This document shows, piece by piece, positions 11,533-64,000 of a DNA stretch of 64,000 nucleotides. The DNA comes from Promethearchaeota archaeon. Lineage in GTDB: Archaea; Asgardarchaeota; Lokiarchaeia; Sigyniarchaeales; SOKP01. Numbering within the stretch: the stretch's first letter is position 1; each line of letters starts with the position of its first letter. The DNA lies in assembly GCA_019058245.1 (NCBI GenBank), contig JAHPZJ010000013.1, positions 41,166 to 105,165 on the forward strand, in the 5' to 3' direction. The notes beneath the pieces are model-generated. The model had not been told where the DNA came from. It saw nothing but the letters and a program-made list of their open reading frames with translations, and searched no databases. Both the position numbers and the translations under genes were made by a program.

Positions 11533-14500
11533 TGGAAGGAGCAGTGTTAGTAATTGGAGGAGGTATAGCAGGTATCCAAATTTCTCTAGATCTTACAGAA
11601 TTAGGATTTAAAGTGTATTTAGTAGAAAAATCACCTTCCATCGGAGGGAGAATGGCTCAATTAGATAAAACTTTTCCAACATTAGATTGTTCATTATGTA
11701 TCTTAGCCCCAAAAATGGTTGAAGTATTTCGGAATCCAAATGTTGAATTGATGACGTATCATGAGGTATTAAACATTGATGGTGAACCAGGTGATTTTAC
11801 AGCAAAAATTTTAAAGAAACCAAGATATATTGATGAATCTAAATGTAAAGGATGTGGAGAATGTGCCAATAAATGTCCTAAAATCTTAGCTCCAAATCTT
11901 TTTGAAATGAATATTGGGAAAAGAAAGTCAGTATATATTCCTTTTCCTCAAGCGGTACCCCCTATCTACTTAATTGATTCCGAAATGTGTTTGTATTTAA
12001 AAAAGGGGGTATGTCAAGTGTGTAAAAAAGTATGTCCTGCTGATGCAATAGATTTTGAACAAAAAGCTGAAGAATTCGAAATTAAAGTTGGAGCAGTTGT
12101 AGTTGCTACCGGTTTTGAAATGCCTGCTGATAAGTTATCTTCAAGATGGGGTTATAGATTCGAAAATGTTGTAAGTGCTCTTGAATATGAAAGGATATTA
12201 TGTGCATCTGGACCATTTGGAGGTCATGTTACTCGATTAAGTGATGAAAAGGAACCTGAAGTAATTGCATTTATTCAATGTGCGGGTTCTAGAGATCTTC
12301 ATGAAAATGTACCTTTTTGTTCCAGCGTTTGTTGCACTTATACAGCAAAACAAGCAATAATAACACAAGAACATTCAGAGAATTCAGAATGTTATGTTTT
12401 TCGACATGATATTCGAGCTTATGGTAAAAATTTCTATGAATTCACACAAAGAGCTCAGAATGAATATGGAGTAAAATACTTTCAATCAAAAATAAGTAAA
12501 ATTGAAGAAGATTCAGAGACAAAAGATCTAATTATACATTATGAAGATTTAAAGTCTGGAGAATTTAAAGATTTCCGAGCAAATTTAGTTGTTTTAGCAT
12601 CGCCCTTAGTTCCATCTAAAGGTGTTCAAGAATTATCGAATTCTCTAGGTATTGAACTAGATAAGTATAATTTCTTTCAAGAAAAATCATATTTTGACAA
12701 ATTAAAATCCTCTAGGAATGGAGTTTATTTATGTGGATTTTGTCAAGGACCAATGGACATTCCAGAAACAGTTGCTGATGCTAGTGGAGTAGCAGCTCAA
12801 ATTGCTGATTTATTAAGTTCTGTTAAATATACACAAATGAAAGAAAAAACAGTAGATGTGCCTGAAAAAGAAGTAAAAATCACAGATGAACCAAGAATTG
12901 GAGTAATGGTCTGTCATTGCGGAATCAATATTGCAAATTATGTAGATGTGCCAAAAGTTGTAGAATATATCAAGGAATTACCAAATGTTGTGGTATGCGA
13001 ATCCAATTTATATTCATGTTCTTCTGACTCTCAAATTAGGATTAAAGAATTAATTGCTGAACACAATTTAAATCGTTTTATCGTAGCCTCATGCACGCCT
13101 AGAACTCATGAATCTTTATTTCAAGAAACATGTCAGGAAGCAGGATTAAATAAATATCTGTTTGAGCTTGTTAATATTAGAGATCAGTGCTCATGGGTTC
13201 ATATGACAGAAAAAGACGCAGCAACAGAAAAAGCTATTGATTTAATTAGAATGCATGTAGCTAAATCAAAATTATTAAAACCCCAGAGAGAAGATAAAAT
13301 AGATATTACCCATACAGCATTAGTCATTGGTGGTGGTGTTTCCGGTATGACTGCAGCACTTAATATCGCAAATCAAGGATTTAAAACTTTTCTTGTAGAA
13401 AAAGAAGATGAATTAGGTGGAAACCTAAAATTCCTAAACGTTTTATATCCCGTTCATAAAAATGCTTTAGAACTTTTAAATGAATTAAAAGAGAAAATAA
13501 ATAAGAACAACAACATTCAAGTTTATCTAAATGCTGGATTAAGCAATATTAAGGGATATGTTGGCAATTATGACGTAGTTATAACTGATTCAAATAATGA
13601 AATCCATGATGTAAAAATTGGAACAATAATAGTTGCTACTGGAGGTAAGGAACTTAAACCAACAGGATTGTTTGGATACAATGATAAGAGTAAGAATGTT
13701 ATGACTCAATTAGAGTTAGAGCAAAAATTAAAAAATAAAGATACAAAATGGTTAGAGGGAATAAACCGAGTAACCATAATTCTATGTGTAAACGCAAGAC
13801 AAAAGGAAGGTATTACTTACTGTTCTAACATATGTTGTGCAACGGCTTTAAAAAATGTTAGAATCTTAAAAGAATTGAAACCCGAATTAGAAATTGTTGT
13901 AATATATAGAGATTTACAAATGGCTAAGAAAGAATTCGAAGAATATTATCGTGAAAGAAGAAAAGATGCTATATTTTTAAGATACGATTTAGAAAATTTG
14001 CCAGAAGTAAAGTTGAAAAAAGGTACTTCTGAAAAATATCAGATAAAAGTATATGATACTAATTTAAAAGATAATATCGAATTTGAATCAGATTTAGTAA
14101 TACTTTCAACACCTATGGTTCCAGCAGAAAATTTAAAAGAATTAGCTATGATGTTGAAAGTTCCATTAGATAAGAATGGGTTCTTCTTGGAAGCACATGT
14201 TAAATTGCGACCATTGGATTTTGCTACTGACGGAATTTTCCTATGTGGATGTGCTCAATGGCCAAAAAATATTCAAGATTCAATTTCTCAAGCTAATGGT
14301 GCTGCTGGGAGAGCAAGTAGATTTCTCAGTGCAGATAAAATAACTACCTCTGGATTAGTTGCAGAAGTTTCAGAAGAAAAATGCATTGGATGTGGAGAAT
14401 GCGAGGATGTTTGTCCTTATAAAGCAATAACCCTCATAGAAATTGAAAAAGAATTTGAGGATATTACCATTAAAGTCAAAAAATCTAATATCAATGCTGC

Positions 14501-14639
14501 TGTATGTAAAGGATGTGGAACATGTGCTGCAACATGTAAGGTTGGTGCTATAATGGTTAAACATTATGATTTTGATCAAATTTCCACAATGATTGATTCA
14601 TATTTATTAGAAAAGGAGGAAATTAAAAACGGTCTATAG
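11532..14639 (+). CDS. hdrA: HdrA family, long form with two FAD domains
   Basis: VIGGGIAG, QLDKTFPTLDCSLC, CAGSR..CSSVCC, CHCG..NIRDQCSWVH, second FAD domain, C-terminal ferredoxin. Confidence 0.95.
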   Translation: MEGAVLVIGGGIAGIQISLDLTELGFKVYLVEKSPSIGGRMAQLDKTFPTLDCSLCILAPKMVEVFRNPNVELMTYHEVLNIDGEPGDFTAKILKKPRYIDESKCKGCGECANKCPKILAPNLFEMNIGKRKSVYIPFPQAVPPIYLIDSEMCLYLKKGVCQVCKKVCPADAIDFEQKAEEFEIKVGAVVVATGFEMPADKLSSRWGYRFENVVSALEYERILCASGPFGGHVTRLSDEKEPEVIAFIQCAGSRDLHENVPFCSSVCCTYTAKQAIITQEHSENSECYVFRHDIRAYGKNFYEFTQRAQNEYGVKYFQSKISKIEEDSETKDLIIHYEDLKSGEFKDFRANLVVLASPLVPSKGVQELSNSLGIELDKYNFFQEKSYFDKLKSSRNGVYLCGFCQGPMDIPETVADASGVAAQIADLLSSVKYTQMKEKTVDVPEKEVKITDEPRIGVMVCHCGINIANYVDVPKVVEYIKELPNVVVCESNLYSCSSDSQIRIKELIAEHNLNRFIVASCTPRTHESLFQETCQEAGLNKYLFELVNIRDQCSWVHMTEKDAATEKAIDLIRMHVAKSKLLKPQREDKIDITHTALVIGGGVSGMTAALNIANQGFKTFLVEKEDELGGNLKFLNVLYPVHKNALELLNELKEKINKNNNIQVYLNAGLSNIKGYVGNYDVVITDSNNEIHDVKIGTIIVATGGKELKPTGLFGYNDKSKNVMTQLELEQKLKNKDTKWLEGINRVTIILCVNARQKEGITYCSNICCATALKNVRILKELKPELEIVVIYRDLQMAKKEFEEYYRERRKDAIFLRYDLENLPEVKLKKGTSEKYQIKVYDTNLKDNIEFESDLVILSTPMVPAENLKELAMMLKVPLDKNGFFLEAHVKLRPLDFATDGIFLCGCAQWPKNIQDSISQANGAAGRASRFLSADKITTSGLVAEVSEEKCIGCGECEDVCPYKAITLIEIEKEFEDITIKVKKSNINAAVCKGCGTCAATCKVGAIMVKHYDFDQISTMIDSYLLEKEEIKNGL

Positions 14640-47216: not shown

Positions 47217-48092
47217 ATAGCAGAAAAAAAGATAGATATCCTCTTAATTGAAGATAATAAAGCTGATGTACGTCTTATTGAAGAATTTTTGAAAAAATCT
47301 GAAGAATTCAAATTTAATTTAGAATCAAAACCTAGACTTTATGAAGGTATGAATTATCTTAAGTCTAGAGACTTTGATATTATTTTATTAGATTTAACCT
47401 TACCGGATAGTGATAAAGAGAATACTCTAGAAATTGTTTTAAACAATACTACCTCTATTCCTATAATTATTTTAACTGGATTAGATGATAAGGATATAGC
47501 ATTAAAATCTCTTCAAAAAGGTGCTCAAGACTATATACTAAAGGATGAATTAAATCAAGGAAATTTAACAAGAGCTATAATATATGCTATTGAAAGACAT
47601 AAAAGTAAAACTGAAAAGATAATAGAGAGAGCTTTAAAAACGCAATTTGATGAAAAAGATAAAGAAATTCTTAATTATCTACAAGACAATTATAAAATCT
47701 CATATAAAGATTTAAGTAAAAAAGTGAATTTAGCTGCCAGCACTATTCATAATCGAGTACAAAATATGATAAAAGAGGGAATAATAAAGAAATTTGATAC
47801 GTTTGTAGATCCTTTTAAAGTTGGATATACATCTATAGCCATTCTTGGTCTTTCTGTAGATCCGTTGAAATCTGAGAATATTGCTAGAAAACTCTCAAAA
47901 TATGATGAAATACAATTAGTTGCCTCCTCTACGGGAGATCATAATTTATTATTGAAAATTATTGCGAAAAACGAAAAATATCTTTGGAGATTTATAAATG
48001 AAGAAATTAAAACTCTAGATGGTATCCAATCACCAATACATGTTTCAAGCTTTTTAGATATCTTTAAAATGTCTCATAAAATTACCTTTTAA
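47217..48092 (+). CDS. Response regulator: REC domain fused to Lrp/AsnC HTH and RAM domain; apparent ATA start
   Basis: Frame extends 5' of the called TTG to include IDILLIEDN; phospho-Asp LLDLTLPD, ILTG, QDYILK; then FDEKDKEIL..LAASTIHNRV..STGDHNL. GGTGA at 47206-47210 precedes ATA 47217. Confidence 0.85.
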   Translation: MAEKKIDILLIEDNKADVRLIEEFLKKSEEFKFNLESKPRLYEGMNYLKSRDFDIILLDLTLPDSDKENTLEIVLNNTTSIPIIILTGLDDKDIALKSLQKGAQDYILKDELNQGNLTRAIIYAIERHKSKTEKIIERALKTQFDEKDKEILNYLQDNYKISYKDLSKKVNLAASTIHNRVQNMIKEGIIKKFDTFVDPFKVGYTSIAILGLSVDPLKSENIARKLSKYDEIQLVASSTGDHNLLLKIIAKNEKYLWRFINEEIKTLDGIQSPIHVSSFLDIFKMSHKITF

Positions 48093-48207: not shown

Positions 48208-49263
48208 TTATTCAAAAGCTTGAGGAATTAACATAATGAAATTACTTCCTTTTGAATAATCTCCAGCTACTTTATCCTCAACCCAAATTTTCCCGCTATA
48301 TTTTTTAAGTATTCTTTTAACGATTGATAATCCAATTCCCATACCTTTAGAATACTTATCTTTATGATTTCTTCTCTTAAAAATAATTTCTTTACGTTCA
48401 TCGGGAATTCCAATTCCGTTATCTTTAATTTCGATTTTTAAATAATTTATATCATTTATTTTTTCATTTGAGAGATTTATTTTAATTTCTACTAAAGAGC
48501 TATCATTATATTTCACAGCATTAATAAATAAATTAAAAAATACTTCATATAATAATTCATTTGCATTAATCCAAATGGTTTTATTTGGGATCTCTATATT
48601 GAAAGTTATTTCTTTATTCTGGTAATAATTTTTAATGTTTACAATTGACTCCTCAAGTATTTCTTTTATACTAATTTTTTTTAAATAAAATTGAGAATCT
48701 TCTAGTTTTGTTAGATTTTGTACATTTAAAGTTAATCTTACACCCCTAAGACATTGATCTCTTATTATTTCAATTAATTCATCTTGTTTATAGACCTTAT
48801 TGCCATTTTTTCTTAAAATTGTATAGAGTTCTGTAGAAGATAAAATATTTTGAAAGATATTATTCATATCATGGCTAATTAAATCTCTATAAAAAAGAAT
48901 GTTACGATATGCTTTAGTTAGTTCTTTAGTTTTTGAAATATTTTCACTTAAAGCAGTAACAATAATACCAACAATTATAATCATTATAGCCCTAAGAATT
49001 TGTTCTAAGTTCTGTAAATAATCAATAATTATACCAAAAAAGAAAGGAAATAAAATTAGTGAGAGTGCCAAATATATAGGGATAAATAAACCATACTTTT
49101 TCCACCAAAAACAAGCTAAAATTGTTGGAATATAGAAGAGATGTGAAAAAAAGATGTTAATTTTTAAAATTATTTGAAATAAATAATTCAAAACGGATGA
49201 AATAATTAAAAGTATGATTATAATGGCATACTTTATTTTTTTAGTGTAATTTTTAATCTTCAT
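48208..49263 (-). CDS. Membrane sensor histidine kinase
   Basis: About 4 N-terminal TMs, H box ISHDMNN, N box NLFINAVKY, DNGIGIP, GMGIGLSIV, GSNF. Confidence 0.92.
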   Translation of the reverse strand: MKIKNYTKKIKYAIIIILLIISSVLNYLFQIILKINIFFSHLFYIPTILACFWWKKYGLFIPIYLALSLILFPFFFGIIIDYLQNLEQILRAIMIIIVGIIVTALSENISKTKELTKAYRNILFYRDLISHDMNNIFQNILSSTELYTILRKNGNKVYKQDELIEIIRDQCLRGVRLTLNVQNLTKLEDSQFYLKKISIKEILEESIVNIKNYYQNKEITFNIEIPNKTIWINANELLYEVFFNLFINAVKYNDSSLVEIKINLSNEKINDINYLKIEIKDNGIGIPDERKEIIFKRRNHKDKYSKGMGIGLSIVKRILKKYSGKIWVEDKVAGDYSKGSNFIMLIPQAFE

Positions 49264-49342: not shown

Positions 49343-50644
49343 TTAATGCGTGGCACATGAAATACAAGGATCAAATGCTCTAATTATCATCTGTACTTCT
49401 TTTTCTACTAATTTAATATCACCAGTTTTATCAAATAGTTCTTGAGCATATTTAGTTATCATTTGATTAAGAAGTGGAATATTAAACTCCGTAGCAATGA
49501 ATAGTTTTATTTCATCAATAATGTTGTTTTTATTTATGTGATAATTATGTATTAAAGTTCCTCTTGGTGCTTCAATAACACCAATACCCTCATTCTTTTT
49601 AATAGATTTAAAAGAAGGAAGATACTTTCTAACATTTAATGAAGGTTCTCCCAATATCTGTATACATTTATATGATTCAATATATATTTCCAGTAATCGT
49701 AAAAAATTAATGAATAGTAAATTATTTGTCCATGATTTATTAAAATATTCAAGATATGTATTAATTTTATCAAAATCATACTTTTCAATAATTTTATAAC
49801 GTGAAAAAGGTCCAACTATTACATTTTTTTTATTTTCAAAAAAGAAATCAATACCTCTTAAATTTATCTCTTTATTAAAATATCTTGTATAGTTTTGAGC
49901 TTCAAATTCTATTAGATTTTTGTCTTCTTTAAGGCTTAAAGAACCAGAATATCGATCATAAATACCATGATTATTTTTCGCTAAACAAATAGTATTTGGT
50001 AAATTAAAATCTTCTGGAGGGATTTGATTACCAAATAATTTAATGAAATCTTCTATAATCCATTCTACAATCGTTAAGGCTTTTTGAAGATATTTTTGAG
50101 ATAATAAAATTAATTTTCCAGAAGGAGAATAAATAACACCTCCGGGAACAATTGAAATCAAGTGAACAGACCTACCACCAAAAATCTCATTGATTTCATT
50201 TCCAAATTTAATTAGATCGTATAAATTTGATGTTAATTGAGGATTAAATTTGATTAATTCATAGGGAGATAAAGTATTTTTACTAATATTAAAAATTTTT
50301 AAAAGATCTGGCAAAGTTTGAAAGAAAAAGTTCATTGAATGGGATTTTATTAATTCTGCTGTCATTAATAGGCGTCTTAAATAAATACTTTGTTCTGAAA
50401 TTTCTATATTGTAAATATCTTCTAAAGTTTTACAACTTGCAATTGCTTGAGAAGCATAACATAAACCACATATTCGAGATACAAATTTAGGAATATCAAG
50501 TAGCCTTTTACCTATTAGGAATTTTTCAAATCCCCTATATACGTTAAATTCAAAATTTGCTAATGAAACTTCATCATTTTGAAGCATAATTTTAACTTCT
50601 CCATGTCCTTCAACACGTGTACATACATTAACAATTTTTTGCAA
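49343..50644 (-). CDS. mvhA: [NiFe]-hydrogenase large subunit (group 3-like) with no C-terminal extension
   Basis: TRVEGHG, RGFEKF, SRICGLCYASQ, EAPRGTLIH; ends RAFDPCISCATH-stop. Confidence 0.9.
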   Translation of the reverse strand: MQKIVNVCTRVEGHGEVKIMLQNDEVSLANFEFNVYRGFEKFLIGKRLLDIPKFVSRICGLCYASQAIASCKTLEDIYNIEISEQSIYLRRLLMTAELIKSHSMNFFFQTLPDLLKIFNISKNTLSPYELIKFNPQLTSNLYDLIKFGNEINEIFGGRSVHLISIVPGGVIYSPSGKLILLSQKYLQKALTIVEWIIEDFIKLFGNQIPPEDFNLPNTICLAKNNHGIYDRYSGSLSLKEDKNLIEFEAQNYTRYFNKEINLRGIDFFFENKKNVIVGPFSRYKIIEKYDFDKINTYLEYFNKSWTNNLLFINFLRLLEIYIESYKCIQILGEPSLNVRKYLPSFKSIKKNEGIGVIEAPRGTLIHNYHINKNNIIDEIKLFIATEFNIPLLNQMITKYAQELFDKTGDIKLVEKEVQMIIRAFDPCISCATH

Positions 50645-50649
50645 TAATA

Positions 50650-51408
50650 TTACCTATTAATCTTTGGTTTTGAAAATCGATTATAAATTCCAGTATATTT
50701 TTGCAATTCTTGAGAAAGTTCTATTAAACTCAAAAAATTTACAACATTAGATGTAAAATCTTTTGATACAGGCCCCATGCATCCTTCGCATGGAAGTCCC
50801 ATTTTTATACATTTATGCTCACAACCATCACGAGTTATTGGTCCCAAACATAAAATACCATTATTTAAAAAACATTCAGAGTTTTCTTCACCTAATCTAA
50901 TTTCTTCGGGATTAGGATTAATTTTAGTTATTTTTATATGGGAATTAATTTCTATACTTCCTCTTAATGGACAATTTGCACACATATTTTTTTCGGATAA
51001 AATTATATCTTTATTTCCAACCAAATTGATTAAACAATTTCCAAAAAATTTAGATGGAGGAGGACAACCAGGAATCATACCATCAATTTCAATATGATTA
51101 GATAAAGGCTCTGCTTTCTTTGAATTAGAAAGGCTTAAAATTCCACCAAAGCAAGCACATGTTCCTAATGCAAAAACTCTTTTAGCACGTTTTCTTATTT
51201 TTCTAATAAGATTTATTTGTGTTTCTTCAGAAATACATCCTTCTACTAATGCAATTTCGCATTCTTCTATATCATCTGAATCTAAAATAAATAGAAAATA
51301 GTTTATTTTTATTCTTTCAAGAAATTGGGGGAAAATATCTAAAGATATAAGAGTCGATATACATCCAGTACATGATGTAAGAGAAATTATATTGAATCTA
51401 GGCTTCAT
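50650..51408 (-). CDS. mvhG: [NiFe]-hydrogenase small subunit
   Basis: SCTGC, VEG, GTCACFGG, PGCPP, CANC, CFL..CLGPITRDGC..C..PCEGCMGP. Start moved to ATG 51408, overlapping the upstream stop. Confidence 0.9.
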   Translation of the reverse strand: MKPRFNIISLTSCTGCISTLISLDIFPQFLERIKINYFLFILDSDDIEECEIALVEGCISEETQINLIRKIRKRAKRVFALGTCACFGGILSLSNSKKAEPLSNHIEIDGMIPGCPPPSKFFGNCLINLVGNKDIILSEKNMCANCPLRGSIEINSHIKITKINPNPEEIRLGEENSECFLNNGILCLGPITRDGCEHKCIKMGLPCEGCMGPVSKDFTSNVVNFLSLIELSQELQKYTGIYNRFSKPKINR

Positions 51409-53947
51409 ACTTAATCTCCTCCAATAGGTTATTATACAATTTATTAGCAGTATCAGCAAATTTATTTCCTTCAACAGCATTCAAATGTTTAAGGATTATT
51501 CGATCTTTATATTTTGGATCTATTACATTTTTTAATAGTCTGATTTTGTTTTCTATCTTTTTTACTCCATCTATATATCGACAAGCATCTTGTCTACATC
51601 CAACTATCATAACTCCATCGAAACCAAGTTCAAATGATTTAATAATAAAGTTTGTATCAATACGTCCTGTACAAGGAACTCTTACAATGAAAACATTAGG
51701 AGTATATGAAATCTTTTTTAGTCCAGCATTATCAGCTGCAGCATATCCACATGATGCACAACAGAAGGCAATGATTTTTGGATTTGATCTGAATTTTGAG
51801 AAAATCTTAATTGTCCTTAAAATTTTCTTAGAAGTATCTATATTTAGGTCTATAGCATTAGTAGGACAAATACTAGCACAAGTGCCACCCCCTTTACATT
51901 TGAATTTATCTATACTAATTTTATCCCTCTCTATTGTAATTGCATTATATGGACAAATTTTTAAACATAAACCACATAAACCACATTTATTTTCATCTAT
52001 TTCAATTCCAGTAAATTCTGCTATTAAATAATCCTTAGAAAGTAATGAAATGACTTTTAAAGCAACATTATTAGCTGTTGAAATAGTAGAATTATAATTT
52101 AAAGGACCGAAAATAGTTCCAACACCATAAATTCCGGATGCTAATGTGTCTACACTCATAAATCCGTTATTATCTAATGTAAAATCCATATATTGTCTAA
52201 GATTTTTTAAATCCTCATTTGGGATATATTTTATATTTAATACTATCAAATCGCTTTGAAATTCTATATTATCCGCAATAACATAATTTATATCTTTAGA
52301 AGATTTAATGCTAATTTTATTTGCATAAATAAATTTAGGGTTTGTAGATCTTAACAAAATCTCATCCTTATCCTTTAACCTACTTAAATCATAAAAAACA
52401 TTTACTTCACAATGAGGATTTCTTATTTTAACATCCTCAATATATTTTTCTGCTAAAATTTCAGAAAAATCTGATAGATATTTTGAAGGACCAACTTCTT
52501 GAATTATTGAAATGGAAATTATGGGCTTTTTATCTGATATCTTTACAAGTTTCCCATCAGTTAGGCCATCAGACGATAAAAGACGCTCAAATTCAGGTGA
52601 TGTTATTATATTTTTTTTTGGATTATAATTATATTCTTCTAAATCTTTATAAAAATCAGATCCAATAGCAATAACTTTAGTACCAACTTTTATTTCAATT
52701 CTTTCTTCTTTTTGATCCAAATCTATTGCTTTATTTATGCAAGCACGTTCACAAATCCTACAATTAAGACAATTCTTTAAATCTTCCTCATCTATCAAAG
52801 GAGCATAAGGATAAGAATGTATGAATGGAATATAAATTAATTTTCGATTACTTAAACCAAATTCATATTGATTTGGTTTTTCTATACTACAAACAGAAAT
52901 ACATTGTTTACATCCTGTACATTTTTTTACATCAACATATCTAGGTTTTTTAATCATATTAATTGTGAAATTTCCAACTTCTCCTGTTACGTTTTCGATT
53001 TCTGTATTTGTGAATATTTTTATATTTTTTTCATTAACTAACTCTGCTATTAATTCAGAAATAAAACATATTGAACAATCACCCATATTATGAATTCTGT
53101 GCCATCTAGCTACCTTACCTCCTAAGGTTGGTGATTTTTCAATAAGATATACTTTTATTCCTGCTCGTGCTAAATTTAAAGATAAAGTTATACCAGCAAT
53201 TCCTCCACCTAAAACAGCACAACTTTTCTCAATTTCAACTCTCTTTACTTTTATTTTTTTTTGAAAACTTACACGTTCAACAGCTGCCTCAATTAATAAC
53301 TTCCCTTTTTCTAGAGGAAGTGATAGATTGTTTTGTTCATCATTTGGTTGATGTACCCAACAACATTGTTCTCTAATATTAGCAATTTCAATATTAGTAT
53401 GATCAATAATATCTTCAAAAATTCTTTCAAAAAGATTTTGGTGAGTTTTAGGAGAACAAGCAGCTATAACTATTTTATTTATAAAATTATCTTTTACCCA
53501 ATTACGAATTTTCTCAAAGTTTTTTTGCTGACAAAGGTTTTCAAATACTTTTACCGAAACTACTTTTTTTAATTTATTTACGTAATTTTCAAGTGCTTTT
53601 ATATTAATTACATTTGAAATTTCTGTATTACAATTACAAATAATTACTCCAACACGACTTATTTCGCTTCTCTTTGAATCAAAATACTCGTCAATAAATT
53701 CTCCTGCTAAAATTCTCTTATTAAGATTAATAATTTTTAAAACACGTTTACCATCTTCTGTGAGAAAATATGCTTTATTGTCCTTACCTATTAATGAACC
53801 AATCTTTTTAAGGTGAAAATTTAATTGTCCAGTCGTATCTAAATTGAGTTTTTCCATTAATTCGGTATATGGAATATATCCTTCTTTTTCTAAAAGAAAT
53901 AAAATCTTTCGTCTAAACGGATGAGATAATATTGAATATATATCCAT
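51398..53947 (-). CDS. ArsR-like wHTH fused to a divergent HdrA and MvhD
   Basis: aa ~1-80 LSHPFRRKILFLL..YTELM..TGQLNFHLKKI..YFLTEDG; HdrA GVIICNC..AACSP..NIREQCCWVH, VLGGGIAG, ferredoxin motifs; MvhD FCCASCGYAAAD..VPCTGRID..GCRQDACRY. Confidence 0.9.
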   Translation of the reverse strand: MDIYSILSHPFRRKILFLLEKEGYIPYTELMEKLNLDTTGQLNFHLKKIGSLIGKDNKAYFLTEDGKRVLKIINLNKRILAGEFIDEYFDSKRSEISRVGVIICNCNTEISNVINIKALENYVNKLKKVVSVKVFENLCQQKNFEKIRNWVKDNFINKIVIAACSPKTHQNLFERIFEDIIDHTNIEIANIREQCCWVHQPNDEQNNLSLPLEKGKLLIEAAVERVSFQKKIKVKRVEIEKSCAVLGGGIAGITLSLNLARAGIKVYLIEKSPTLGGKVARWHRIHNMGDCSICFISELIAELVNEKNIKIFTNTEIENVTGEVGNFTINMIKKPRYVDVKKCTGCKQCISVCSIEKPNQYEFGLSNRKLIYIPFIHSYPYAPLIDEEDLKNCLNCRICERACINKAIDLDQKEERIEIKVGTKVIAIGSDFYKDLEEYNYNPKKNIITSPEFERLLSSDGLTDGKLVKISDKKPIISISIIQEVGPSKYLSDFSEILAEKYIEDVKIRNPHCEVNVFYDLSRLKDKDEILLRSTNPKFIYANKISIKSSKDINYVIADNIEFQSDLIVLNIKYIPNEDLKNLRQYMDFTLDNNGFMSVDTLASGIYGVGTIFGPLNYNSTISTANNVALKVISLLSKDYLIAEFTGIEIDENKCGLCGLCLKICPYNAITIERDKISIDKFKCKGGGTCASICPTNAIDLNIDTSKKILRTIKIFSKFRSNPKIIAFCCASCGYAAADNAGLKKISYTPNVFIVRVPCTGRIDTNFIIKSFELGFDGVMIVGCRQDACRYIDGVKKIENKIRLLKNVIDPKYKDRIILKHLNAVEGNKFADTANKLYNNLLEEIKYEA

Positions 53948-54033: not shown

Positions 54034-54056
54034 TGATTAATATTATTGTCAGATTA
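54034..54056. promoter_or_regulatory. Candidate operator TGACAA-N6-TTGTCA, copy 1
   Basis: TGATTA-ATATTA-TTGTCA-GATTA, 87 nt upstream of the wHTH-hdrA start; the 16-mer tattattgtcagatta is identical to 61542-61557. Confidence 0.55.
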
Positions 54057-54453
54057 TTTAAATATGATCTATTTGGTCTATCTGATTATCAATATTGATA
54101 GAGTAATATGTACCAATACTCTATATTATATTATGTGAATGCTAAATATGGTTTCGGAAAAGGATCAAATAGAGATCAGATCAATAAAAATAGTAAATAA
54201 ATAATAAACAAATTTGTCAAAATAATTATAACTTTTTAATTAAAATTCCTTGAATTGTTATTCTCTGGTTGGATAATAGGAACATATTCTTAGAAAAAAT
54301 TATAATTACTTTTATGTAAATCTTCTTAATAAATTAGTATTCAAAATTTCAATAACAAAATGTGGTGATTTCTTTAAAATATTAAGAATAATTTCCTTGA
54401 ATTATAGATATGATACCCATAATAAATTTTGATTAAGATTTCTTAATCTAAAT

Positions 54454-55584: not shown

Positions 55585-56064
55585 TTAATTTTTTTTGATA
55601 TTATAATCTAATTCAATTATTCCAGATTTTTTTGGAATTTTCAATTCTCCTAAATCAATAATTTTATTTGTAAAATCTGTAATTAGCTCAGAAAATTGTT
55701 TTCCTTCACTTGCTGAAATAGAGTATAGTTCAAATCGTTCTTCCTCAATTCCAATATATTTAATTAACTTTTTTAAATGCTCCATTCTATTTTGTGTATA
55801 CTTGAATCCTTTTATATAATGACAGTCACCCATATGACAGCCAATAACTAACACTCCATCTATTCCATTATTAAATGCCCTTAAAACAAACGTGGGCTCA
55901 ACTCTACTAGAACACATAACTCTAATAATCCTAATATTTGGCGGATATTGGAATCTCGAAACCCCCGCTAAGTCAGCTCCCGCATAACTACACCAATTAC
56001 AACAAAATACTAGAATATTAGGTTCATATTCATATTGACTTGCTTTTTTAGTTTTCAACAACAT
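55585..56064 (-). CDS. mvhD: MvhD/FlpD [2Fe-2S] subunit
   Basis: [28 protein letters not shown]. Start moved to ATG 56064 after AGGAGG. Confidence 0.93.
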   Translation of the reverse strand: MLLKTKKASQYEYEPNILVFCCNWCSYAGADLAGVSRFQYPPNIRIIRVMCSSRVEPTFVLRAFNNGIDGVLVIGCHMGDCHYIKGFKYTQNRMEHLKKLIKYIGIEEERFELYSISASEGKQFSELITDFTNKIIDLGELKIPKKSGIIELDYNIKKN

Positions 56065-59000
56065 AATTCCTCCTAAATTTAATAGATTCATATTCTAATA
56101 GATCTATATTGGACATTAAATCAATCATTTTATTAATTTGGAACTTACTAAAATGATTCTGATCAATAGCTCCAACGGAACATTCTGTAACACATGATCC
56201 ACATCCTTTACAAAGTGCTTTAATTATATGCGCTTTTCTTAACTTCATGCTATATAGACCCATTTGTTTATTACTCTCAATTATTTCTATTGCATTGTAT
56301 GGGCAAACTTCAATACATTTACCACATCCAATGCATTTTTCTTCATTTATATGAGAAGTAATGCATTCTGTTTCTATTTCACCTTTCACCATTATTATTG
56401 CGGCTCTCCCTGCTGCGCCATATGCTTGGATGATACTCTCTTGAATCCATTTGGGCCAATGAGCACCACCACAAAGAAAGATTCCTTCTGTAGCAAAATC
56501 TATTGGCCTGAGTTTCGCATCAGCTTCTAAGAAAAATCCATCTTTATTTGTTGTTACTTTTAACATTTTTGATAATCTTTTAGTATCTTTAGTAGGAACG
56601 TTAGGAGTTGCTAATATTAATAAATCGGTATCGTACTCAATATCCGTTTGAGCACTTATATTTTTATACTTAATATGAAAGTGATTATTTATACTATTAA
56701 TTTTGATATCATCAATCGATTGATATCTTTCATAAGTAGCTTTATTTCGAAGCCCTCGACATAGATTTTCTGCATTTAAATCTGAAAATTGAAGTTCTCT
56801 ATATAAAATATGAATTTGCGCATCAGGATTAATTTTCAATAATTTTTCTATATTTTTTAAGGCTACTCCACAACATATATTTGAGCAATATGTTTTTGTA
56901 TAACTTGCGTTATTATATTTATCTTTTCTTTGATCTACGCATAATATTATAGTGGCATCTTTAAACTTAGGAACTTCCTCATCTTTCATTCCAGTCAGTT
57001 CTGTTTGAGTAAATACACGATTGGGATGCTTTTCTGCTAAATCTTTCCATTTGATTGTTTTAATCTGCTTAGTTCCTGTAGCAATTATTATAGTGCCAAC
57101 CTTTATTATTTGTTCTTCAGAATTGTCTTTTGTATTTTTAACTTTTACATGATAATTTCCCACATAACCTTGAACATCAATAATTTCTGTGTTAAATAAA
57201 ATTTTGACATTTGAATTATTTTTTAAATCATCAATTTGCTGCAAAATTTCATTTTTAGTAATAGCTATATAATATAGATCAACAAATTCTAGTGCACTAC
57301 CACCAAGAGTAGCTTTATTGTCGATAAGATACACTTTGAATCCTTGATTTGCTAAATTATGAGCAGCAGTTATACCTGATAGTCCAGCACCGATTACCAT
57401 TGTTGATTTTTCAACTTTGACTTTAATAGTTTCTAATGGTTTTAAATTAATTACTTTGGCTAAATACATTCTAATTAAATCACAAGCCTTTCTAGTAGCC
57501 TTTTCAGGTTCCTTCATATGTACCCAAGAAGCTTGATTTCTTATATTAACTAATTCAAATAAATATGGGTTCAATCCAACCTCTCTGAGAGTATTTTTAA
57601 AAAGTTGTTCATGTGTTCGAGGAGTACAAGATGCAACAATGAATCTATTGAGTTTATGTTTCAAAATTAATTTTTTAATTAGTTCTTGGGAATCAGAACT
57701 ACATGAATACATATTTTCTTCAACATGGACTACATATGGTAATTTAGAGACATACTCTACTACTTTAGGAACATCGACAATACCTCCGATATTTATCCCA
57801 CATTGGCAGACTAATACACCTACGCGAGGCTCATCTTCTAAACTTACTGGTATTTCAGGAGGATACTTAACTTTCTGTATATTTTTAAATCTTAGAGAAT
57901 AAAATTTTTCACTTATTTTAGCGGCGCAAGCAGAACCTTCTGCAACAGCCATTTGAATATCATTAGGTTTACGTGAATTACCAGTTACAAATACATTCTT
58001 TTTCTCAAGTAACTTTATATCTTCTTCACGAATATATCCTAAATGATTCTTATCTAAATTGAGTTGTTTTAAAAATTCATAATAAGATGGAGCTGGAGAC
58101 AAGGCACTAGCTAATACAGCCATGTCAACTTCAAAATTGTCAACTGTACCTCTATTAATATCTTCATAATATAATCTTAATTTTCCATTATCTAAATTTT
58201 CTTTAATATATGAAACGTGACCATTTATATATTTAACATCATATTCATCTTTACTCTTTTCAATAAATTCATTAAAATTTTTACCTTTTGCTCTTATTTC
58301 TGTATTAAAAATATAACATTCTATATTTGGATCATGTTCCTTACATACAATTGCTTCTTTAGCTGAATTCATACAACATATCGCTGAACAATATTTTTTA
58401 CATTCAGGATGATGAAAATCTCGAGATCCTACACATTGAATAAATGCGATTGAATCAGGGTGCTTTTTATCATCTAATCTTAATATTTGCCCTACAGTAG
58501 GTCCATTTGCGGATAATAGACGTTCAAATTGCATATTAGACAAAACATTGGGAGATTCCCCTGCAAAATTTTTGTATACTTCTGGCATTTGCTGACTTGT
58601 TCCTGTAGCAATAACAATGGCTCCTACATTTAGAGTTATTTCTTCTGGTTTTTGAAAAAAATCTATAGCATCCGCGCTACAAACTTTGGCACAAAGTCCA
58701 CATATTTGATGATTTAGATATAAACATCTTGATTCATCAATAAGATATACTGGAGGTACTGATGATGGAAAAGGAATATATACAGCAGCTCGGGTTTTTA
58801 AATTGGTATCAAAATCACTAGGGATTCCTCTAACTGGACAAATATTTTCACAATCACCACATCCCTTACAAATATTTTCGTTTATATATCTTGGTTTTTT
58901 AATAACCGTAATTTTATAATCTCCAGCAGTTCCATCGATTTTTTTAACGTATGAATAAGTTAACAATTCGATATTCGGATCTCTATACACATCAACCATT

Positions 59001-59191
59001 TTTGGTGCTAGGATACATAAACTACAATCAAGCGTAGGGTATATTTTATCTAATTGTGCCATCGTTCCGCCAATAGTTGGTTTAATTTCAACTAAATATA
59101 CCTTAAATCCTAATTTTGTTAAATCTAGGGATGCTTGTATACCAGAAATTCCTCCTCCTATAACCAAAACATCACTCTGGAAATTTGACAT
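56048..59191 (-). CDS. hdrA: HdrA family, long form with two FAD domains
   Basis: VIGGGISG, QLDKIYPTLDCSLC, CVGSR..CSAICC, CQCG..SCTPRTHE, second VIGAGLSG, C-terminal ferredoxin. Confidence 0.95.
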   Translation of the reverse strand: MSNFQSDVLVIGGGISGIQASLDLTKLGFKVYLVEIKPTIGGTMAQLDKIYPTLDCSLCILAPKMVDVYRDPNIELLTYSYVKKIDGTAGDYKITVIKKPRYINENICKGCGDCENICPVRGIPSDFDTNLKTRAAVYIPFPSSVPPVYLIDESRCLYLNHQICGLCAKVCSADAIDFFQKPEEITLNVGAIVIATGTSQQMPEVYKNFAGESPNVLSNMQFERLLSANGPTVGQILRLDDKKHPDSIAFIQCVGSRDFHHPECKKYCSAICCMNSAKEAIVCKEHDPNIECYIFNTEIRAKGKNFNEFIEKSKDEYDVKYINGHVSYIKENLDNGKLRLYYEDINRGTVDNFEVDMAVLASALSPAPSYYEFLKQLNLDKNHLGYIREEDIKLLEKKNVFVTGNSRKPNDIQMAVAEGSACAAKISEKFYSLRFKNIQKVKYPPEIPVSLEDEPRVGVLVCQCGINIGGIVDVPKVVEYVSKLPYVVHVEENMYSCSSDSQELIKKLILKHKLNRFIVASCTPRTHEQLFKNTLREVGLNPYLFELVNIRNQASWVHMKEPEKATRKACDLIRMYLAKVINLKPLETIKVKVEKSTMVIGAGLSGITAAHNLANQGFKVYLIDNKATLGGSALEFVDLYYIAITKNEILQQIDDLKNNSNVKILFNTEIIDVQGYVGNYHVKVKNTKDNSEEQIIKVGTIIIATGTKQIKTIKWKDLAEKHPNRVFTQTELTGMKDEEVPKFKDATIILCVDQRKDKYNNASYTKTYCSNICCGVALKNIEKLLKINPDAQIHILYRELQFSDLNAENLCRGLRNKATYERYQSIDDIKINSINNHFHIKYKNISAQTDIEYDTDLLILATPNVPTKDTKRLSKMLKVTTNKDGFFLEADAKLRPIDFATEGIFLCGGAHWPKWIQESIIQAYGAAGRAAIIMVKGEIETECITSHINEEKCIGCGKCIEVCPYNAIEIIESNKQMGLYSMKLRKAHIIKALCKGCGSCVTECSVGAIDQNHFSKFQINKMIDLMSNIDLLEYESIKFRRNYVVEN

Positions 59192-59233
59192 ATAAAATAG
59201 TTTTTAAAAATTTTTTTTTAATTTTATTTTAAC

Positions 59234-60439
59234 CTATATAATCATTAACAATTTGCCTATAAAACTGGCTAAATCAATTACTTTTATATTACTAGAAAAT
59301 TCATTATGCTCTTTATTGAGAGACAATTCATTTAAATAACAATTAAAATGTGTTAGACATTTAGGACAAGGAACAATTAAATATTCAGCTCCAGTTTCAA
59401 TCGCTTCATTAATACGATTTTGTCTTATATAACGTGTGTATTCACTACAATTTGTAAATGCTGAAACGCCACAACAATTAGCATCATCTTTAATATTTTC
59501 CATTTCAATTAATTTTACACCTGGAATTTTTTTTATTAATTCTCTAGGAGTATCATACAATTTTCCTCCTAGGCGTCCTAATCGGCAAGAATCGTGATAT
59601 GTTACATTAATCTTAGAATTATGCGTATATTTTATATTTTCAAGAATATTTTCTCTAAGAAAGAATTCGGAAAAATGTAAAACTTCAAAATCAAAGTCTT
59701 TAATAATTTTCGGATAATCATATTTCCATGTTCTATATCCTTCAGCGCATCCAACAATAATAGTCTTTACTCCTGCATTTTTATAAAGTTGAGTATTATA
59801 TTCAGCAAGCTTTCTAAATGTTTCATTATCGCCTCTACCCCATAAAATATCATGTCCACAACATTTTTCATCTAGAACTACTGGATTTATACCATTTTCA
59901 TTAAGTAAATTTATAATTGTTACAGGAATATCCGTATAATTGATATCAAAATTATAGAAAAGATCATCCATTATAGATAAGCATCCAACAAAATATGCAA
60001 TTTCGCCTGAAGTTGTAGTTTTTAATTCATTTTTCTCTAGAAAATCTAACTTATTTGGACTTGAAGGATTATGTGCCATAATTTTAGAAATCAAAGTGAA
60101 AATATCATTATGAGTTTCGCATTTAACAATCTTTTTTATTTCTGAATTGTTTTTATTTGAAATTTTTCTTAATTCTAAAATCAATTCTGGTATTCTCACA
60201 CCCTGATTTTCACGTGTCATAGGACAGTAAATTGAACATTGTCCACAAGTTAGACAATTCCAAATATTATTTTTTGCTATAACTTCTTCCATTGTAAAAA
60301 AGTTTAAATCTGAAACTAAATCTTTAGGATAAAAGACGTCTAAGTGGGAAAGTGGACATACATTAACACAACGATTACAACTATAGCAATAATTAGTAAA
60401 AGAACTTATATTTTTAATTATTTCTTGAGAATCTAACAC
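59234..60439 (-). CDS. hdrD: HdrD-like Fe-S oxidoreductase (2x[4Fe-4S] plus two CCG domains)
   Basis: CYSCNRCVNVCP, CLTCGQCSIYCP, FVGC..CCGH..GCAEG, YHDSC..CCGV..PCPKC. Confidence 0.85.
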   Translation of the reverse strand: MLDSQEIIKNISSFTNYCYSCNRCVNVCPLSHLDVFYPKDLVSDLNFFTMEEVIAKNNIWNCLTCGQCSIYCPMTRENQGVRIPELILELRKISNKNNSEIKKIVKCETHNDIFTLISKIMAHNPSSPNKLDFLEKNELKTTTSGEIAYFVGCLSIMDDLFYNFDINYTDIPVTIINLLNENGINPVVLDEKCCGHDILWGRGDNETFRKLAEYNTQLYKNAGVKTIIVGCAEGYRTWKYDYPKIIKDFDFEVLHFSEFFLRENILENIKYTHNSKINVTYHDSCRLGRLGGKLYDTPRELIKKIPGVKLIEMENIKDDANCCGVSAFTNCSEYTRYIRQNRINEAIETGAEYLIVPCPKCLTHFNCYLNELSLNKEHNEFSSNIKVIDLASFIGKLLMII

Positions 60440-61534: not shown

Positions 61535-61557
61535 TGACAACTATTATTGTCAGATTA
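61535..61557. promoter_or_regulatory. Candidate operator TGACAA-N6-TTGTCA, copy 2 (perfect)
   Basis: TGACAA-CTATTA-TTGTCA-GATTA about 160 nt upstream of the operon at 61712. Confidence 0.55.
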
Positions 61558-61711: not shown

Positions 61712-62338
61712 ATGATTAAAATGGAAATATTAGAATTAAAGCCAATAAAGAATAAAAAAATTGTTGTGTATATGTCTTCTAAAGAAAGTGCTAAATATTT
61801 CCAAAATGAAGAACATTCAAAACTAATTGAATTCTTAAAAAAGAATAATATTGACTTTGTTACTGTAGACTTTCAAGTGGATATGAAAGAATTTGGTAAA
61901 ACTCAATTCGCAAAAATATTGAATGAATTAAAAATTCCATATTTTCAAGTAGATATTCCTGATTATGCTATGGGATATTTATATCAAGAAATACTTGAGA
62001 AACAAGAGTTCCAAAATGAATTATTTGAAGAATATGAAAGTATGGAGGATAAGGATTCATATAAGGGTTTGAGTTTAAAAAATTGGATTGATTTATTAAC
62101 AGAAGAAATTCAAGAAAGAGAAATATTTCTTAGTTTAAAGTTAAGACCTCAATGGATTGTTAAGAAAATGCTAGATTTAGCATCATCTTTTGAAAAAGAT
62201 TTAGTTTTTTTTGTTCATTTTGTTCAAGAAGATATATGTGAAGACATTTGTCCACAAATAGTTGAAAATTTAAGAGAATTAGGAATAAAAGTAATATCCT
62301 ATAATAAAAAACATACTATACAAAAAGTTATATTTTAA
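61712..62338 (+). CDS. Hypothetical protein, probable distant paralog of 62364..63092
   Basis: Shared pattern ELKP.KNKK, IP..VD/ADI...A..YL, KLRPQWIVKKML vs KVREAWMMMKIL. Start may be ATG 61721. Confidence 0.75.
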   Translation: MIKMEILELKPIKNKKIVVYMSSKESAKYFQNEEHSKLIEFLKKNNIDFVTVDFQVDMKEFGKTQFAKILNELKIPYFQVDIPDYAMGYLYQEILEKQEFQNELFEEYESMEDKDSYKGLSLKNWIDLLTEEIQEREIFLSLKLRPQWIVKKMLDLASSFEKDLVFFVHFVQEDICEDICPQIVENLRELGIKVISYNKKHTIQKVIF

Positions 62339-62363: not shown

Positions 62364-63092
62364 ATGCCAGAAGTATTAGAATTAAAACCTTTAAAAAATA
62401 AAAAGCTAAAATTGGTATTGATAGAAAGCGAATTTCCTATCGATTGGTGGTTTGACGTTCCTAAGACTTTAAAGGAAGATCTTTTTTGGAATCTTCGATT
62501 AATTTCTAAGGAATATATTCAATTAATTGATTCGTTAATTGAAAAATATAAGCCCAAAATTGCGTTGGAAGAAAGACCAAATTTTTGGAATACTACAAAT
62601 AATTCAGAGGATCCTTTAAAAAAGTTATTTCAAATGCGAAATATACCATTTGACTACGCTGATATTTCAGAAAATGCTGAATTATATCTATCATCCGCTT
62701 TAGAAGAGCATAGAACAATGATCCAGCATCTTGAGAGAAGGATTAAGGAAGTTATGAAGAGTAGTGGAGGTATTCCTAATAATGACGATACTTTTAATCG
62801 AATTGTATTATGGAAGGATTATTTACAACAAGATTATAAATTTCAAGAAGATGAAGTAAGATACAAAGTTCGAGAAGCATGGATGATGATGAAAATTTTA
62901 AATCTTGCCAAAAAAATAGAAGCAACTAATTTCAAAGCTATGTTTATTTGTGATATTAGCCACTTCAATGGTCTTGAAAAACTTTCAGAAGAATTAGGTA
63001 TTGAAGTCGAACAAGTAAGAATAAAAAGGACAATTAAAACTGAAGATGTTAAGGAAATATTTGAAAAAGATTTAGAAGTTGAAATTTCTTAA
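62364..63092 (+). CDS. Hypothetical protein, possibly TraB/ChaN-like fold
   Basis: Strong RBS ggagggg; KYKPKIALEE and REAWM..AMFICDISHFNGL loosely resemble the TraB/Tiki/ChaN pattern. Confidence 0.7.
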   Translation: MPEVLELKPLKNKKLKLVLIESEFPIDWWFDVPKTLKEDLFWNLRLISKEYIQLIDSLIEKYKPKIALEERPNFWNTTNNSEDPLKKLFQMRNIPFDYADISENAELYLSSALEEHRTMIQHLERRIKEVMKSSGGIPNNDDTFNRIVLWKDYLQQDYKFQEDEVRYKVREAWMMMKILNLAKKIEATNFKAMFICDISHFNGLEKLSEELGIEVEQVRIKRTIKTEDVKEIFEKDLEVEIS

Positions 63093-63136
63093 ATTATTAA
63101 TTTTATTTTTAGATATAAAAAAAAGGGTTGATAAAA

Positions 63137-64000
63137 ATGGTTGAAAGAGAGGTTGAAAGTATTTTAGGAAGAAAATCAATAATAGAATTAACACCTATTA
63201 TCATTAAAAAGAAAGATACAATGGATAAAATTTGTTATTTCTTTGATACTGATGATAATGCGTCTCCTTTTGATATTAATATGGCATATGATGCAGGATT
63301 TGATATTGTTATACCTATCAGTAAAATGAAAGCCGAATACGTACCAAAATTAATACAAGATGCTATCTTTTCTCGTAAACCTAATGCACCCACAACTTTT
63401 TTTATTGGAGGTTCTGATGTTAAGGAAGGTGAGAAGATAGCAAAAGCAGCAAAAAAATCCTTAGTCCCTCCTTTTGAATGTCCTATTATAATTGATCCCC
63501 GAGGATCTCATACTACAGCTTCCGCTGTAGTTGCAATGTCTTTGGATATAGCTAATAGAAAACATGGAATTAAGAATTTAAAGGGTAAAAAAGTAGTTAT
63601 ATTTGGAGCGGGGCCAGTTGGTAGAATAGCAGCGATTTTAGCTTCAAAAATTGGATGTAATACGTTTTTAGTGGAAACATGGGATAAATCTAATGAGGAT
63701 TTTATAAAAAAATTAGCAAAAGACCTCACTCAAGAAGCAGGAGAAGGAGCAACAGAAATTTCTGGTCTTTTTGCTCCTTTAATTAAACAAAGATTTGATA
63801 TTGTAAAGGATGCTGATGTTATATGGTCTTTAGCAGCTGCAGGTGTTGAAATTCTAACTCAAGAATGGATGGAAAAGTTGCCAGGTAAAAAAATAGTTGT
63901 AGATATTAATTTGGTGCCACCATATGGTATTGAAGGTCTTAAGCCAAAACATAAGAATGATGAGATCTATCCTGGGATTTTTGGAATTGGGGCATTAGCT
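63137..64000 (+). CDS. mtd: NAD(P)-dependent methylene-H4MPT/H4F dehydrogenase (MtdA/B/C family), runs off the window
   Basis: Open from ATG 63137 to the window end: FDTDDNASPFDINMAYDAG, QDAIFSR, FIGG, PPFE..DPRGSHTTA, FGAGPVG, AAAGV, DINLVPPYGIEG, GIGALA. Confidence 0.88.
   Translation, partial: MVEREVESILGRKSIIELTPIIIKKKDTMDKICYFFDTDDNASPFDINMAYDAGFDIVIPISKMKAEYVPKLIQDAIFSRKPNAPTTFFIGGSDVKEGEKIAKAAKKSLVPPFECPIIIDPRGSHTTASAVVAMSLDIANRKHGIKNLKGKKVVIFGAGPVGRIAAILASKIGCNTFLVETWDKSNEDFIKKLAKDLTQEAGEGATEISGLFAPLIKQRFDIVKDADVIWSLAAAGVEILTQEWMEKLPGKKIVVDINLVPPYGIEGLKPKHKNDEIYPGIFGIGALA

Follow-up and report, generated by a model that had tools for sequence, protein, structure and literature searches.

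A winged-helix HdrA-MvhD fusion protein lacking the HdrBC-linked iron-sulfur cluster: a candidate H2- or redox-responsive [NiFe] hydrogenase module in Asgard archaea

A winged-helix HdrA-MvhD fusion gene precedes two [NiFe] hydrogenase genes

We analyzed a 64,000-nucleotide stretch (hereafter the window) of a Promethearchaeota archaeon (Lokiarchaeia; contig JAHPZJ010000013.1, positions 41,166 to 105,165), which belongs to a metagenome-assembled genome (MAG) that is 76% complete. The element under study is a gene in which a winged helix-turn-helix (wHTH) domain is fused to HdrA and MvhD, together with the genes for the small and large [NiFe] hydrogenase subunits that follow it. The corresponding features are as follows:

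51398..53947, reverse strand: wHTH-HdrA*-MvhD fusion gene, an open reading frame (ORF) of 849 amino acids (P0001), from the ORF and its translation
53708..53947, reverse strand: ArsR-type wHTH domain, residues 1-80, followed by a flexible linker, residues 87-94
52445..52504, reverse strand: former HA4 cluster site, residues 482-501, from the alignment to 8rvu
51887..51889, reverse strand: Gly687 codon (GGT), at the middle Cys position of the second C-terminal ferredoxin motif
50650..51408, reverse strand: MvhG*-type [NiFe] small subunit, from Pfam (Oxidored_q6) and the translation
49343..50644, reverse strand: MvhA*-type [NiFe] large subunit with four Ni-Fe cysteines, the L1 motif RICGLCYASQ and the terminal sequence DPCISCATH

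An initial annotation, made from the sequence alone, had described the protein as an HdrA fused to a transcription-factor-type domain, and our analyses identify this domain as an ArsR-type wHTH. In the Pfam scan, residues 2-73 matched the DUF7347 winged helix (39.5 bits against a cut-off of 27.6), and the first 95 residues were akin to the ArsR-like repressor 1y0u (E 0.003), with which they have the PxRRkIL and HLK signatures in common. An AlphaFold2 (AF2) model, built from an alignment of 67 homologs, showed the topology H-H-b-H-H-b-b-H with a wing and a C-terminal helix. DUF7347, 1y0u and the AF2 topology therefore all place the domain, by fold and by signature, in the ArsR/SmtB-type winged-helix family. 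The mean predicted local distance difference test (pLDDT) value of the model was 87.5; the wHTH (residues 3-80) was modelled with confidence, and the linker at residues 87-94 was disordered (pLDDT <50).

The HdrA core (residues 94-712) aligned over its full length with the solved HdrA chains of 8rvu, 5odc and 7bkb (E 1e-109 to 1e-90; 1e-108 to 1e-103 for the 8rvu and 5odc alignments of the core), and Foldseek template modelling (TM) scores of the AF2 model, normalised to the HdrA chains of the same three structures, were 0.82-0.84. Pfam recognised flavin adenine dinucleotide (FAD)/Rossmann and 4Fe-4S ferredoxin motifs in the middle of the protein, and the thioredoxin-reductase-like FAD domain carries the GGGIAG motif. 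At the C-terminus, residues 725-841 correspond to the FlpD/MvhD domain PF02662 (E 2e-33), and residues 722-841 matched the MvhD chain 5odc_D in both alignment and structural comparison. The protein thus possesses the C-terminal MvhD/FlpD domain with its Cys ligands that characterizes type Ia HdrA (HdrA-MvhD fusions). The best NCBIfam model was accordingly that of HdrA2 (NF040770, HdrA-MvhD fusion), with a score of 581.6 bits that falls below the cut-off of 1100; for the HdrA model NF041778 it was 364.4 bits, below the cut-off of 1400.

At its likely start (MKPRF), the MvhG* gene overlaps the last 11 nt of the fusion gene, and all cluster cysteines are present as read from the alignment to 5odc_E. 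In MvhA*, the L0 Glu is present next to the four Ni-Fe cysteines. Two features set this subunit apart, namely a Gln in L1 where canonical copies have His, which was found in all 14 Loki-type orthologs checked, and a C-terminus that stops exactly at DPCxSCATH without the C-terminal extension, as in 13/14 related loci with a detected large subunit. The order fusion gene, MvhG*, MvhA* is kept in 15/15 related loci, these being the loci with enough flanking sequence, drawn from several genera and two further families. Taken together, the three proteins hold a complete ligand set for an electron wire running from the Ni-Fe site through the three MvhG clusters, the MvhD [2Fe-2S] cluster and the HdrA N- and C-terminal clusters to the FAD and on to the inserted ferredoxin domain.

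This genome encodes just two Ni-Fe large subunits. The second lies elsewhere on the same contig, in a canonical MvhG-VhuA-like-HdrC-HdrB cluster 18 kb from an HdrC-HdrB-HdrA-MvhD cluster. With the VhuA model, MvhA* scored 148 bits versus 465 bits for the canonical copy, and across the same five genomes its identities were 85/69/50/51/32%, compared to 98/89/88/82/55% for the canonical copy, indicating that MvhA* diverges faster; it is also the fastest-evolving member of the module. As a separate observation, the canonical large subunit (L001:8133-9440; G000:C13, ~324 kb) is VhuA-like and stops short of the C-terminal DPCxxC motif, pointing to a VhuA/VhuU split.

The HA4 cluster is selectively missing from the HdrA core

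In HdrA, the HA4 cluster forms the route of the high-potential electron from the flavin to CoM-S-S-CoB (PMC12350162), the cluster of the thioredoxin-reductase domain being the exit to HdrBC and the inserted ferredoxin domain the exit to ferredoxin (PMC9012536). Cys197 completes the N-terminal cluster of the partner protomer (PMC9012536), and E356 and K409 form a flavin-stabilising pair that flanks the flavin (PMC12054007). We compared the fusion protein residue by residue with 8rvu and 5odc, using an offset of 8 between the two numberings. All four HA4 cysteines are gone (C386 to E484, C399 to L491, C403 to S495 and C404 to E496), the motif C-x12-C-x3-CC-x4-K being replaced by a stretch that is six residues shorter and keeps the Lys. 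The flavin pair is retained, E356 corresponding to E454 (the Glu of ELER) and K409 to K501. Loss of the four cysteines next to a preserved Glu/Lys pair had been the central point of the initial annotation, and the structural alignment bears it out.

The same holds for the exchange of QLDKTFPT for RWHRIHNM, which lies directly before the retained DCSIC ('gqldktfptlDCSmC' becoming 'arwhrihnmgDCSiC'); C294, the second Cys of DCSIC and the equivalent of Cys197, is kept. The N-terminal cluster, the inserted ferredoxin and the MvhD ligands, described earlier as intact, are indeed complete: the N-domain cysteines 104, 106, 139 and 164, eight inserted-ferredoxin cysteines and five MvhD cysteines are all present. 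The second C-terminal ferredoxin motif reads CKGGGTC, as had been noticed, with Gly687 encoded by a codon one base from TGT.

Since published structures route FAD electrons to HdrC/HdrB through HA4 (PMC12350162, PMC9012536), the alignment indicates that the HdrBC outlet is specifically lost, and that the dimer-forming cluster and the ferredoxin outlet are kept. This agrees with the genomic context, as no HdrBC genes were found in the operon here or in any of the 15/15 related loci. The proposed removal of one exit route is therefore upheld. The further proposal that the protein is a dead end for electrons does not hold, given that the inserted ferredoxin exit with its eight cysteines is 100% conserved (see below).

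Overall, the fusion protein has several attributes of a bifurcating HdrA, namely the FAD domain with the E/K pair, the N-terminal cluster with the Cys197 equivalent and both 2x[4Fe-4S] ferredoxin domains (Gly687 excepted); it lacks the HA4 cluster and co-encoded HdrB/HdrC, and it scores below the NCBIfam cut-offs. It is not a heterodisulfide-reductase HdrA, because a defining cluster, the partner genes and the family score are all at odds with such an assignment.

Cluster loss is shared by the close homologs and is younger than the wHTH fusion

A database search returned at least 120 homolog clusters with 66-87% identity. Nearly all of these 120 homologs are 846-855 amino acids long and most contain DUF7347; a minority of ~793-830 amino acids has no DUF7347 match. 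Named sources were mainly Promethearchaeota or Lokiarchaeota, with some other Asgard labels. At the HA4 positions, 89/120 homologs have no Cys, 31/120 have the first Cys only and 0/120 have two or more. By contrast, the other 25 Cys ligands of the fusion protein are invariant, Cys being found in 100% of the homologs at the N-domain positions, C291, C294, the eight inserted-ferredoxin positions, 7/8 C-terminal-ferredoxin positions and the five MvhD positions; E454 and K501 are likewise kept in 100%. The remaining C-terminal-ferredoxin position, 687, is a Cys in 119/120 homologs and a Gly in this genome only. CKGGGTC is thus present here and is not a feature of the family; Gly687 would be either a real strain variant, predicting a 3Fe-type or defective cluster, or an assembly error. 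An ARW-x-R-[IV] sequence in place of DKTFPT is conserved in the family, and its Trp is common to the nearest wHTH-less HdrA-MvhD proteins.

Pairwise ratios of non-synonymous to synonymous substitution (dN/dS) among close orthologs were 0.08-0.15 across the gene as a whole and 0.03-0.13 within the wHTH. Loss of the cysteines is common to all 120 close homologs, and the gene is under purifying selection. The wHTH is among the most conserved segments of the protein (entropy 0.54), on a par with the FAD domain. Variability is highest in the former HA4 segment (entropy 1.49), a pattern that fits a site freed from constraint and not a site with a newly gained ligand. We also considered that an NAD(P)H or other dinucleotide site was regained at the vacated HA4 position; this was rejected, as the loop (EVGPSK...) has no GxGxxG-type motif and forms the most variable stretch. 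The fusion gene is present as a single copy in 95/151 sampled genomes of the class, and in 26/40 of the high-quality ones.

In a full-library HMMER search, only a handful of 50%-identity clusters aligned from residue 1. Relatives at 36-41% identity (P0123, P0124, P0125 and P0128) keep all four HA4 cysteines in a shortened loop; members of the P0125 cluster are named Bathyarchaeia, and P0128 is named Lokiarchaeia. Retention of the cysteines by orthologs, which would have spoken for decay confined to this genome, is therefore absent from this clade and found in more distant wHTH-HdrA proteins. Because these distant relatives keep the four cysteines, the sequence comparison indicates that the wHTH fusion predates HA4 loss, and that a regulatory role would not have arisen through cluster loss. 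The single Bathyarchaeia locus examined shows the same gene order, with genes for the small and large [NiFe] subunits behind the fusion gene; no HdrBC genes were found nearby, and the L1 His is kept as well as HA4.

An operator-like palindrome is enriched beside the operon in related loci

A first palindrome screen with exact 5-mer half-sites returned AT-rich noise only. Using longer, GC-containing half-sites, a pattern emerged, TGAYAA-N6-TTRTCA, of which 27 non-redundant upstream regions hold 11 exact sites in 8 regions, whereas shuffled sequences gave a mean of 0.02. Across 16 loci of 20 kb each, the 7.4 kb of non-coding DNA adjoining the operon contains 15 exact sites, the remaining 32 kb of non-coding DNA contains 2 and the coding DNA none, corresponding to a ~33-fold enrichment beside the operon in the related loci. 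The sites are often paired, with two copies 168-234 nt apart, and where an FrhB-like gene precedes the fusion gene, they sit upstream of the FrhB-like gene. The window contains the following sites:

54034..54051, reverse strand: operator-like site TGACAA-N6-TAATCA, one mismatch, 104 nt upstream of the ATG
54202..54219, reverse strand: operator-like site TGACAA-N6-TTATTA, one mismatch, at -272 and 168 nt from the -104 site
61535..61552, forward strand: exact palindrome TGACAA-N6-TTGTCA, 159 nt upstream of the ORF at 61712-62338

The flanks of the -104 site align with exact sites at -125 in three same-genus genomes (L016, L021 and L029), and the two-site spacing of 168-169 nt recurs in L018, L019 and L020. 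In other genera, the homolog of the ORF at 61712-62338 is the divergent neighbour of the fusion operon, with which it shares the operator-bearing intergenic region.

This ORF and the one at 62364-63092 encode paralogous Asgard-specific proteins that belong to no Pfam family, with a weak TraB/GumN lead (0.82, protein atlas); in other genera, both keep a divergent position next to the fusion operon. In the window, the pair is followed by a gene (63128-64000) resembling methylene-tetrahydromethanopterin (methylene-H4MPT) dehydrogenase.

A candidate hydrogenase-wired DNA-binding flavoprotein

These results suggest a model in which the wHTH-HdrA*-MvhD protein, as flavin/Fe-S subunit, would form a self-contained three-gene [NiFe] hydrogenase with MvhG* and MvhA*. 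Because the N-terminal cluster and the Cys197 equivalent are kept, the fusion protein is predicted to dimerise like HdrA, and the dimer would therefore place two wHTH domains on the palindrome. H2, by way of MvhA*G*-MvhD, and possibly ferredoxin, by way of the inserted ferredoxin domain, would set the redox state of the FAD and the clusters. Lacking a high-potential outlet, the flavin could not bifurcate and would act as a redox store, the redox state of which is proposed to alter DNA binding of the predicted dimeric wHTH; the complex would thereby regulate, with no kinase involved, both the operon that encodes it and the divergently oriented neighbours, and may in addition carry low catalytic flux. 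MvhA* itself looks sensor-like in its missing C-terminal extension, its Gln in place of the L1 His and its faster evolution.

That the locus encodes a hydrogenase-wired DNA-binding flavoprotein, in which an HdrBC-independent [NiFe] module reports H2 or redox state to DNA, we judge to have an even chance of being correct. The fuller version of this proposal, to which we give somewhat less than even weight, is that of a kinase-free archaeal H2/redox sensor in which a [NiFe] hydrogenase and an HdrA-type wire cut from heterodisulfide reductase drive an ArsR-type domain on TGAYAA-N6-TTRTCA, so that transcription in Asgard archaea and some Bathyarchaeia would directly follow the H2 partial pressure or the balance of H2 and ferredoxin. 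In the general sense of an H2- or redox-responsive gene switch, the assignment is probably right. The redox switch put forward by the initial annotation thus gains independent support from the conserved wHTH and the operator-like palindrome, and it faces a rival in a working hydrogenase linked to ferredoxin, which is discussed below.

Several observations weigh against the proposed switch. The ferredoxin exit and the E/K pair are strictly kept, as a working enzyme would need and a sensor not obviously would. The Bathyarchaeia relatives possess the wHTH and yet retain HA4 and the L1 His, so that not every sensor-like trait goes along with the DNA-binding domain. Genome-wide, the exact palindrome occurs at 5 sites compared to 3-6 in shuffled genomes, which corresponds to chance, and a wider regulon can therefore not be claimed in this genome, the own promoter of which carries one-mismatch copies only. 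In addition, the related genomes are not independent samples, and we infer DNA binding, redox-dependent switching and low turnover alike from sequence.

Alternative explanations

The first alternative, fairly unlikely in our estimate though the best supported of those considered, is a working, non-bifurcating ferredoxin:H+ (or H2:ferredoxin) hydrogenase with linear electron flow from the inserted ferredoxin domain through FAD, the HdrA clusters, MvhD and MvhG* to the Ni-Fe site. HA4 would have been lost for want of HdrBC, and the wHTH would only autoregulate, a PutA-like moonlighting role, or be structural. In a syntrophic lifestyle, Loki-type archaea would depend on H2 evolution to dispose of reduced ferredoxin. 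Such an enzyme would be in line with the 100% conservation of every wire ligand, the ferredoxin-facing clusters included, with the presence of all four Ni-Fe cysteines and the L0 Glu, and with purifying selection across the whole gene. However, the genome already holds a canonical Mvh/Hdr set, the atypical active-site surroundings of MvhA* and its position as the fastest-evolving module member are not those expected of it, and the combination of wHTH and operator is hard to explain as purely structural.

Alternatively, the protein might still bifurcate or confurcate with another high-potential partner, which would act directly at the flavin or via another subunit, for instance an FrhB-like protein with an F420- or NAD(P)-type carrier, and thereby replace the HA4-HdrBC branch. 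We regard this as improbable. Invariance of the E454/K501 pair, which is associated with bifurcating HdrA (PMC12054007), argues for it, as does the FrhB-like gene, which lies 506 nt upstream of the fusion gene in the window and, in several same-genus genomes, directly upstream in the same orientation and downstream of the palindrome. Yet most genera lack this neighbour, we can name no acceptor, and the former HA4 loop gained no GxGxxG-type motif and is the most variable segment. Finally, a decaying paralog or assembly artefact devoid of specific function, to which Gly687, unique to this genome, and the incompleteness of the MAG might point, has next to no probability: the selection data (dN/dS ~0.1, with the other 25 Cys ligands invariant) exclude decay, and 95/151 genomes carry the gene intact, at full length and in a single copy.

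Relation to known systems

The closest known systems are MvhAGD-HdrABC of methanogens and the HdrA2/type Ia fusions (5ODC, 8RVU, 7BKB; NF040770), with which the system described here has in common the HdrA fold, the FAD motif, E356/K409, the N-terminal cluster with Cys197, both ferredoxin domains, the fused MvhD and the co-encoded MvhG- and MvhA-type subunits. It differs from them in its N-terminal ArsR-type wHTH, the absence of HA4 and, from the operon, of HdrBC, the family score (581 bits versus 1100), an MvhA* without C-terminal extension and the Gln at the position of the L1 His.

A functional parallel is offered by HoxBC-HoxJ-HoxA of Cupriavidus necator (a group 2b H2 sensor), in which a second, divergent hydrogenase likewise exists beside the catalytic one and an H2-to-transcription role resembles that proposed here; the large subunit is again without C-terminal extension, a trait of a small subgroup that includes the H2-sensing regulatory hydrogenase (PMC8159394). 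In contrast to that system, MvhA* is not related to it at the subgroup level, its nearest solved relatives being the group 3 enzymes 7t2r_D and 5odc_F, the complex itself bears the DNA-binding domain, and the kinase next to the operon is not a conserved neighbour. That regulatory hydrogenases likewise have Gln at the L1 His position found no confirmation in PMC8159394 or in a literature search, and this trait is not counted as a parallel.

By analogy, the fusion protein may also be likened to PutA, as a flavoprotein with its own DNA-binding domain. PutA is a proline-utilisation flavoenzyme with a fused DNA-binding domain, and the redox state of its flavin reportedly decides whether it acts as a repressor or as an enzyme. 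The two differ in that PutA has an unrelated fold, a ribbon-helix-helix domain and a different substrate, and neither hydrogenase nor Fe-S wire.

In Helarchaeota, a cluster of the same three genes has been called a 'possible energy-transferring complex'; it encodes an Fe-S disulfide reductase that contains an FlpD/MvhD domain, together with an Oxidored_q6 small subunit and a HydB/Nqo4-like large subunit (Seitz et al. 2019, PMC6478937). The passage concerned proposes membrane-linked energy transfer, and a DNA-binding domain, a missing cluster or an operator is not mentioned in that passage (PMC6478937). A literature search on wHTH-HdrA fusions, DUF7347 and Asgard HdrA regulators found no paper.

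Current models give H2 exchange a central place in Asgard physiology and in the syntrophy from which eukaryotes are proposed to have arisen. No description of an archaeal H2 sensor is known to us, and our literature search found none. If the proposal is true, a hydrogenase complex with its own DNA-binding domain would represent a new coupling of H2 or redox state to gene expression, and the protein a natural case of an HdrA re-purposed by removal of a single cluster. The proposal lends itself to direct testing, since wHTH domain, operator and three-subunit complex have each been delineated here.

Neighbouring genes and other HdrA proteins

Further genes in the vicinity of the operon and elsewhere in the window are as follows:

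48208..49263, reverse strand: histidine kinase, directly downstream of mvhA* (NCBIfam)
47289..48092, forward strand: REC-Lrp regulator (REC-Lrp/AsnC hybrid), beside the histidine kinase (NCBIfam)
145-4463, 7020-10100, 10252-14639 and 56048-60439: four tandem double-HdrA (type II) genes, 1013-1047 amino acids

The kinase and REC-Lrp pair was considered as part of the module and rejected, as its adjacency is patchy in the 15 related loci: in L017 and L021, mvhA* is immediately followed by a kinase gene, a short fragment is present in L024, and elsewhere matches were distant or weak.

In four related loci (L017-L020, from G053, G131, G094 and G092; at ~6-9.7 kb in each locus), an extra opposite-strand HdrA gene and a second FrhB-like gene sit between the double-HdrA operon and the fusion gene. 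The window is without both, which indicates from gene order that a deletion or insertion reshaped the promoter region within the genus.

In the Bathyarchaeia locus, a cluster of NuoE-, NuoF- and NuoG-like genes lies upstream of the wHTH-HdrA operon (L033:3378-8629). One of its genes joins [NiFe] small-subunit, ferredoxin and [FeFe]-hydrogenase C-terminal domains, an arrangement resembling that of a hybrid hydrogenase.

The proteins that had served as the reference for the initial comparison, taken then for four ordinary HdrAs, are in fact tandem double-HdrA fusions, a type described for anaerobic methanotrophic archaea (ANME) and Moorella (PMC9012536, PMC12054007); they do carry the four-Cys motif. 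The motif (C[VA]GSR...CSxxCC...K) is located in their first halves, and one of the genes has it in both halves. At least three of the four double-HdrA genes are preceded by a gene of 400-426 amino acids, and the one such gene scanned (59234-60439) encodes an HdrD/TfrB-like protein that has CCG-type domains. Behind one of the four double-HdrA genes lie MvhD and an FrhB-like gene. Overall, Hdr paralogs are unusually dense in the window, with ~15 HdrA-like regions in the genome, and several HdrA and MvhD paralogs of genome G000 show in-frame TGA codons and may be selenoproteins.

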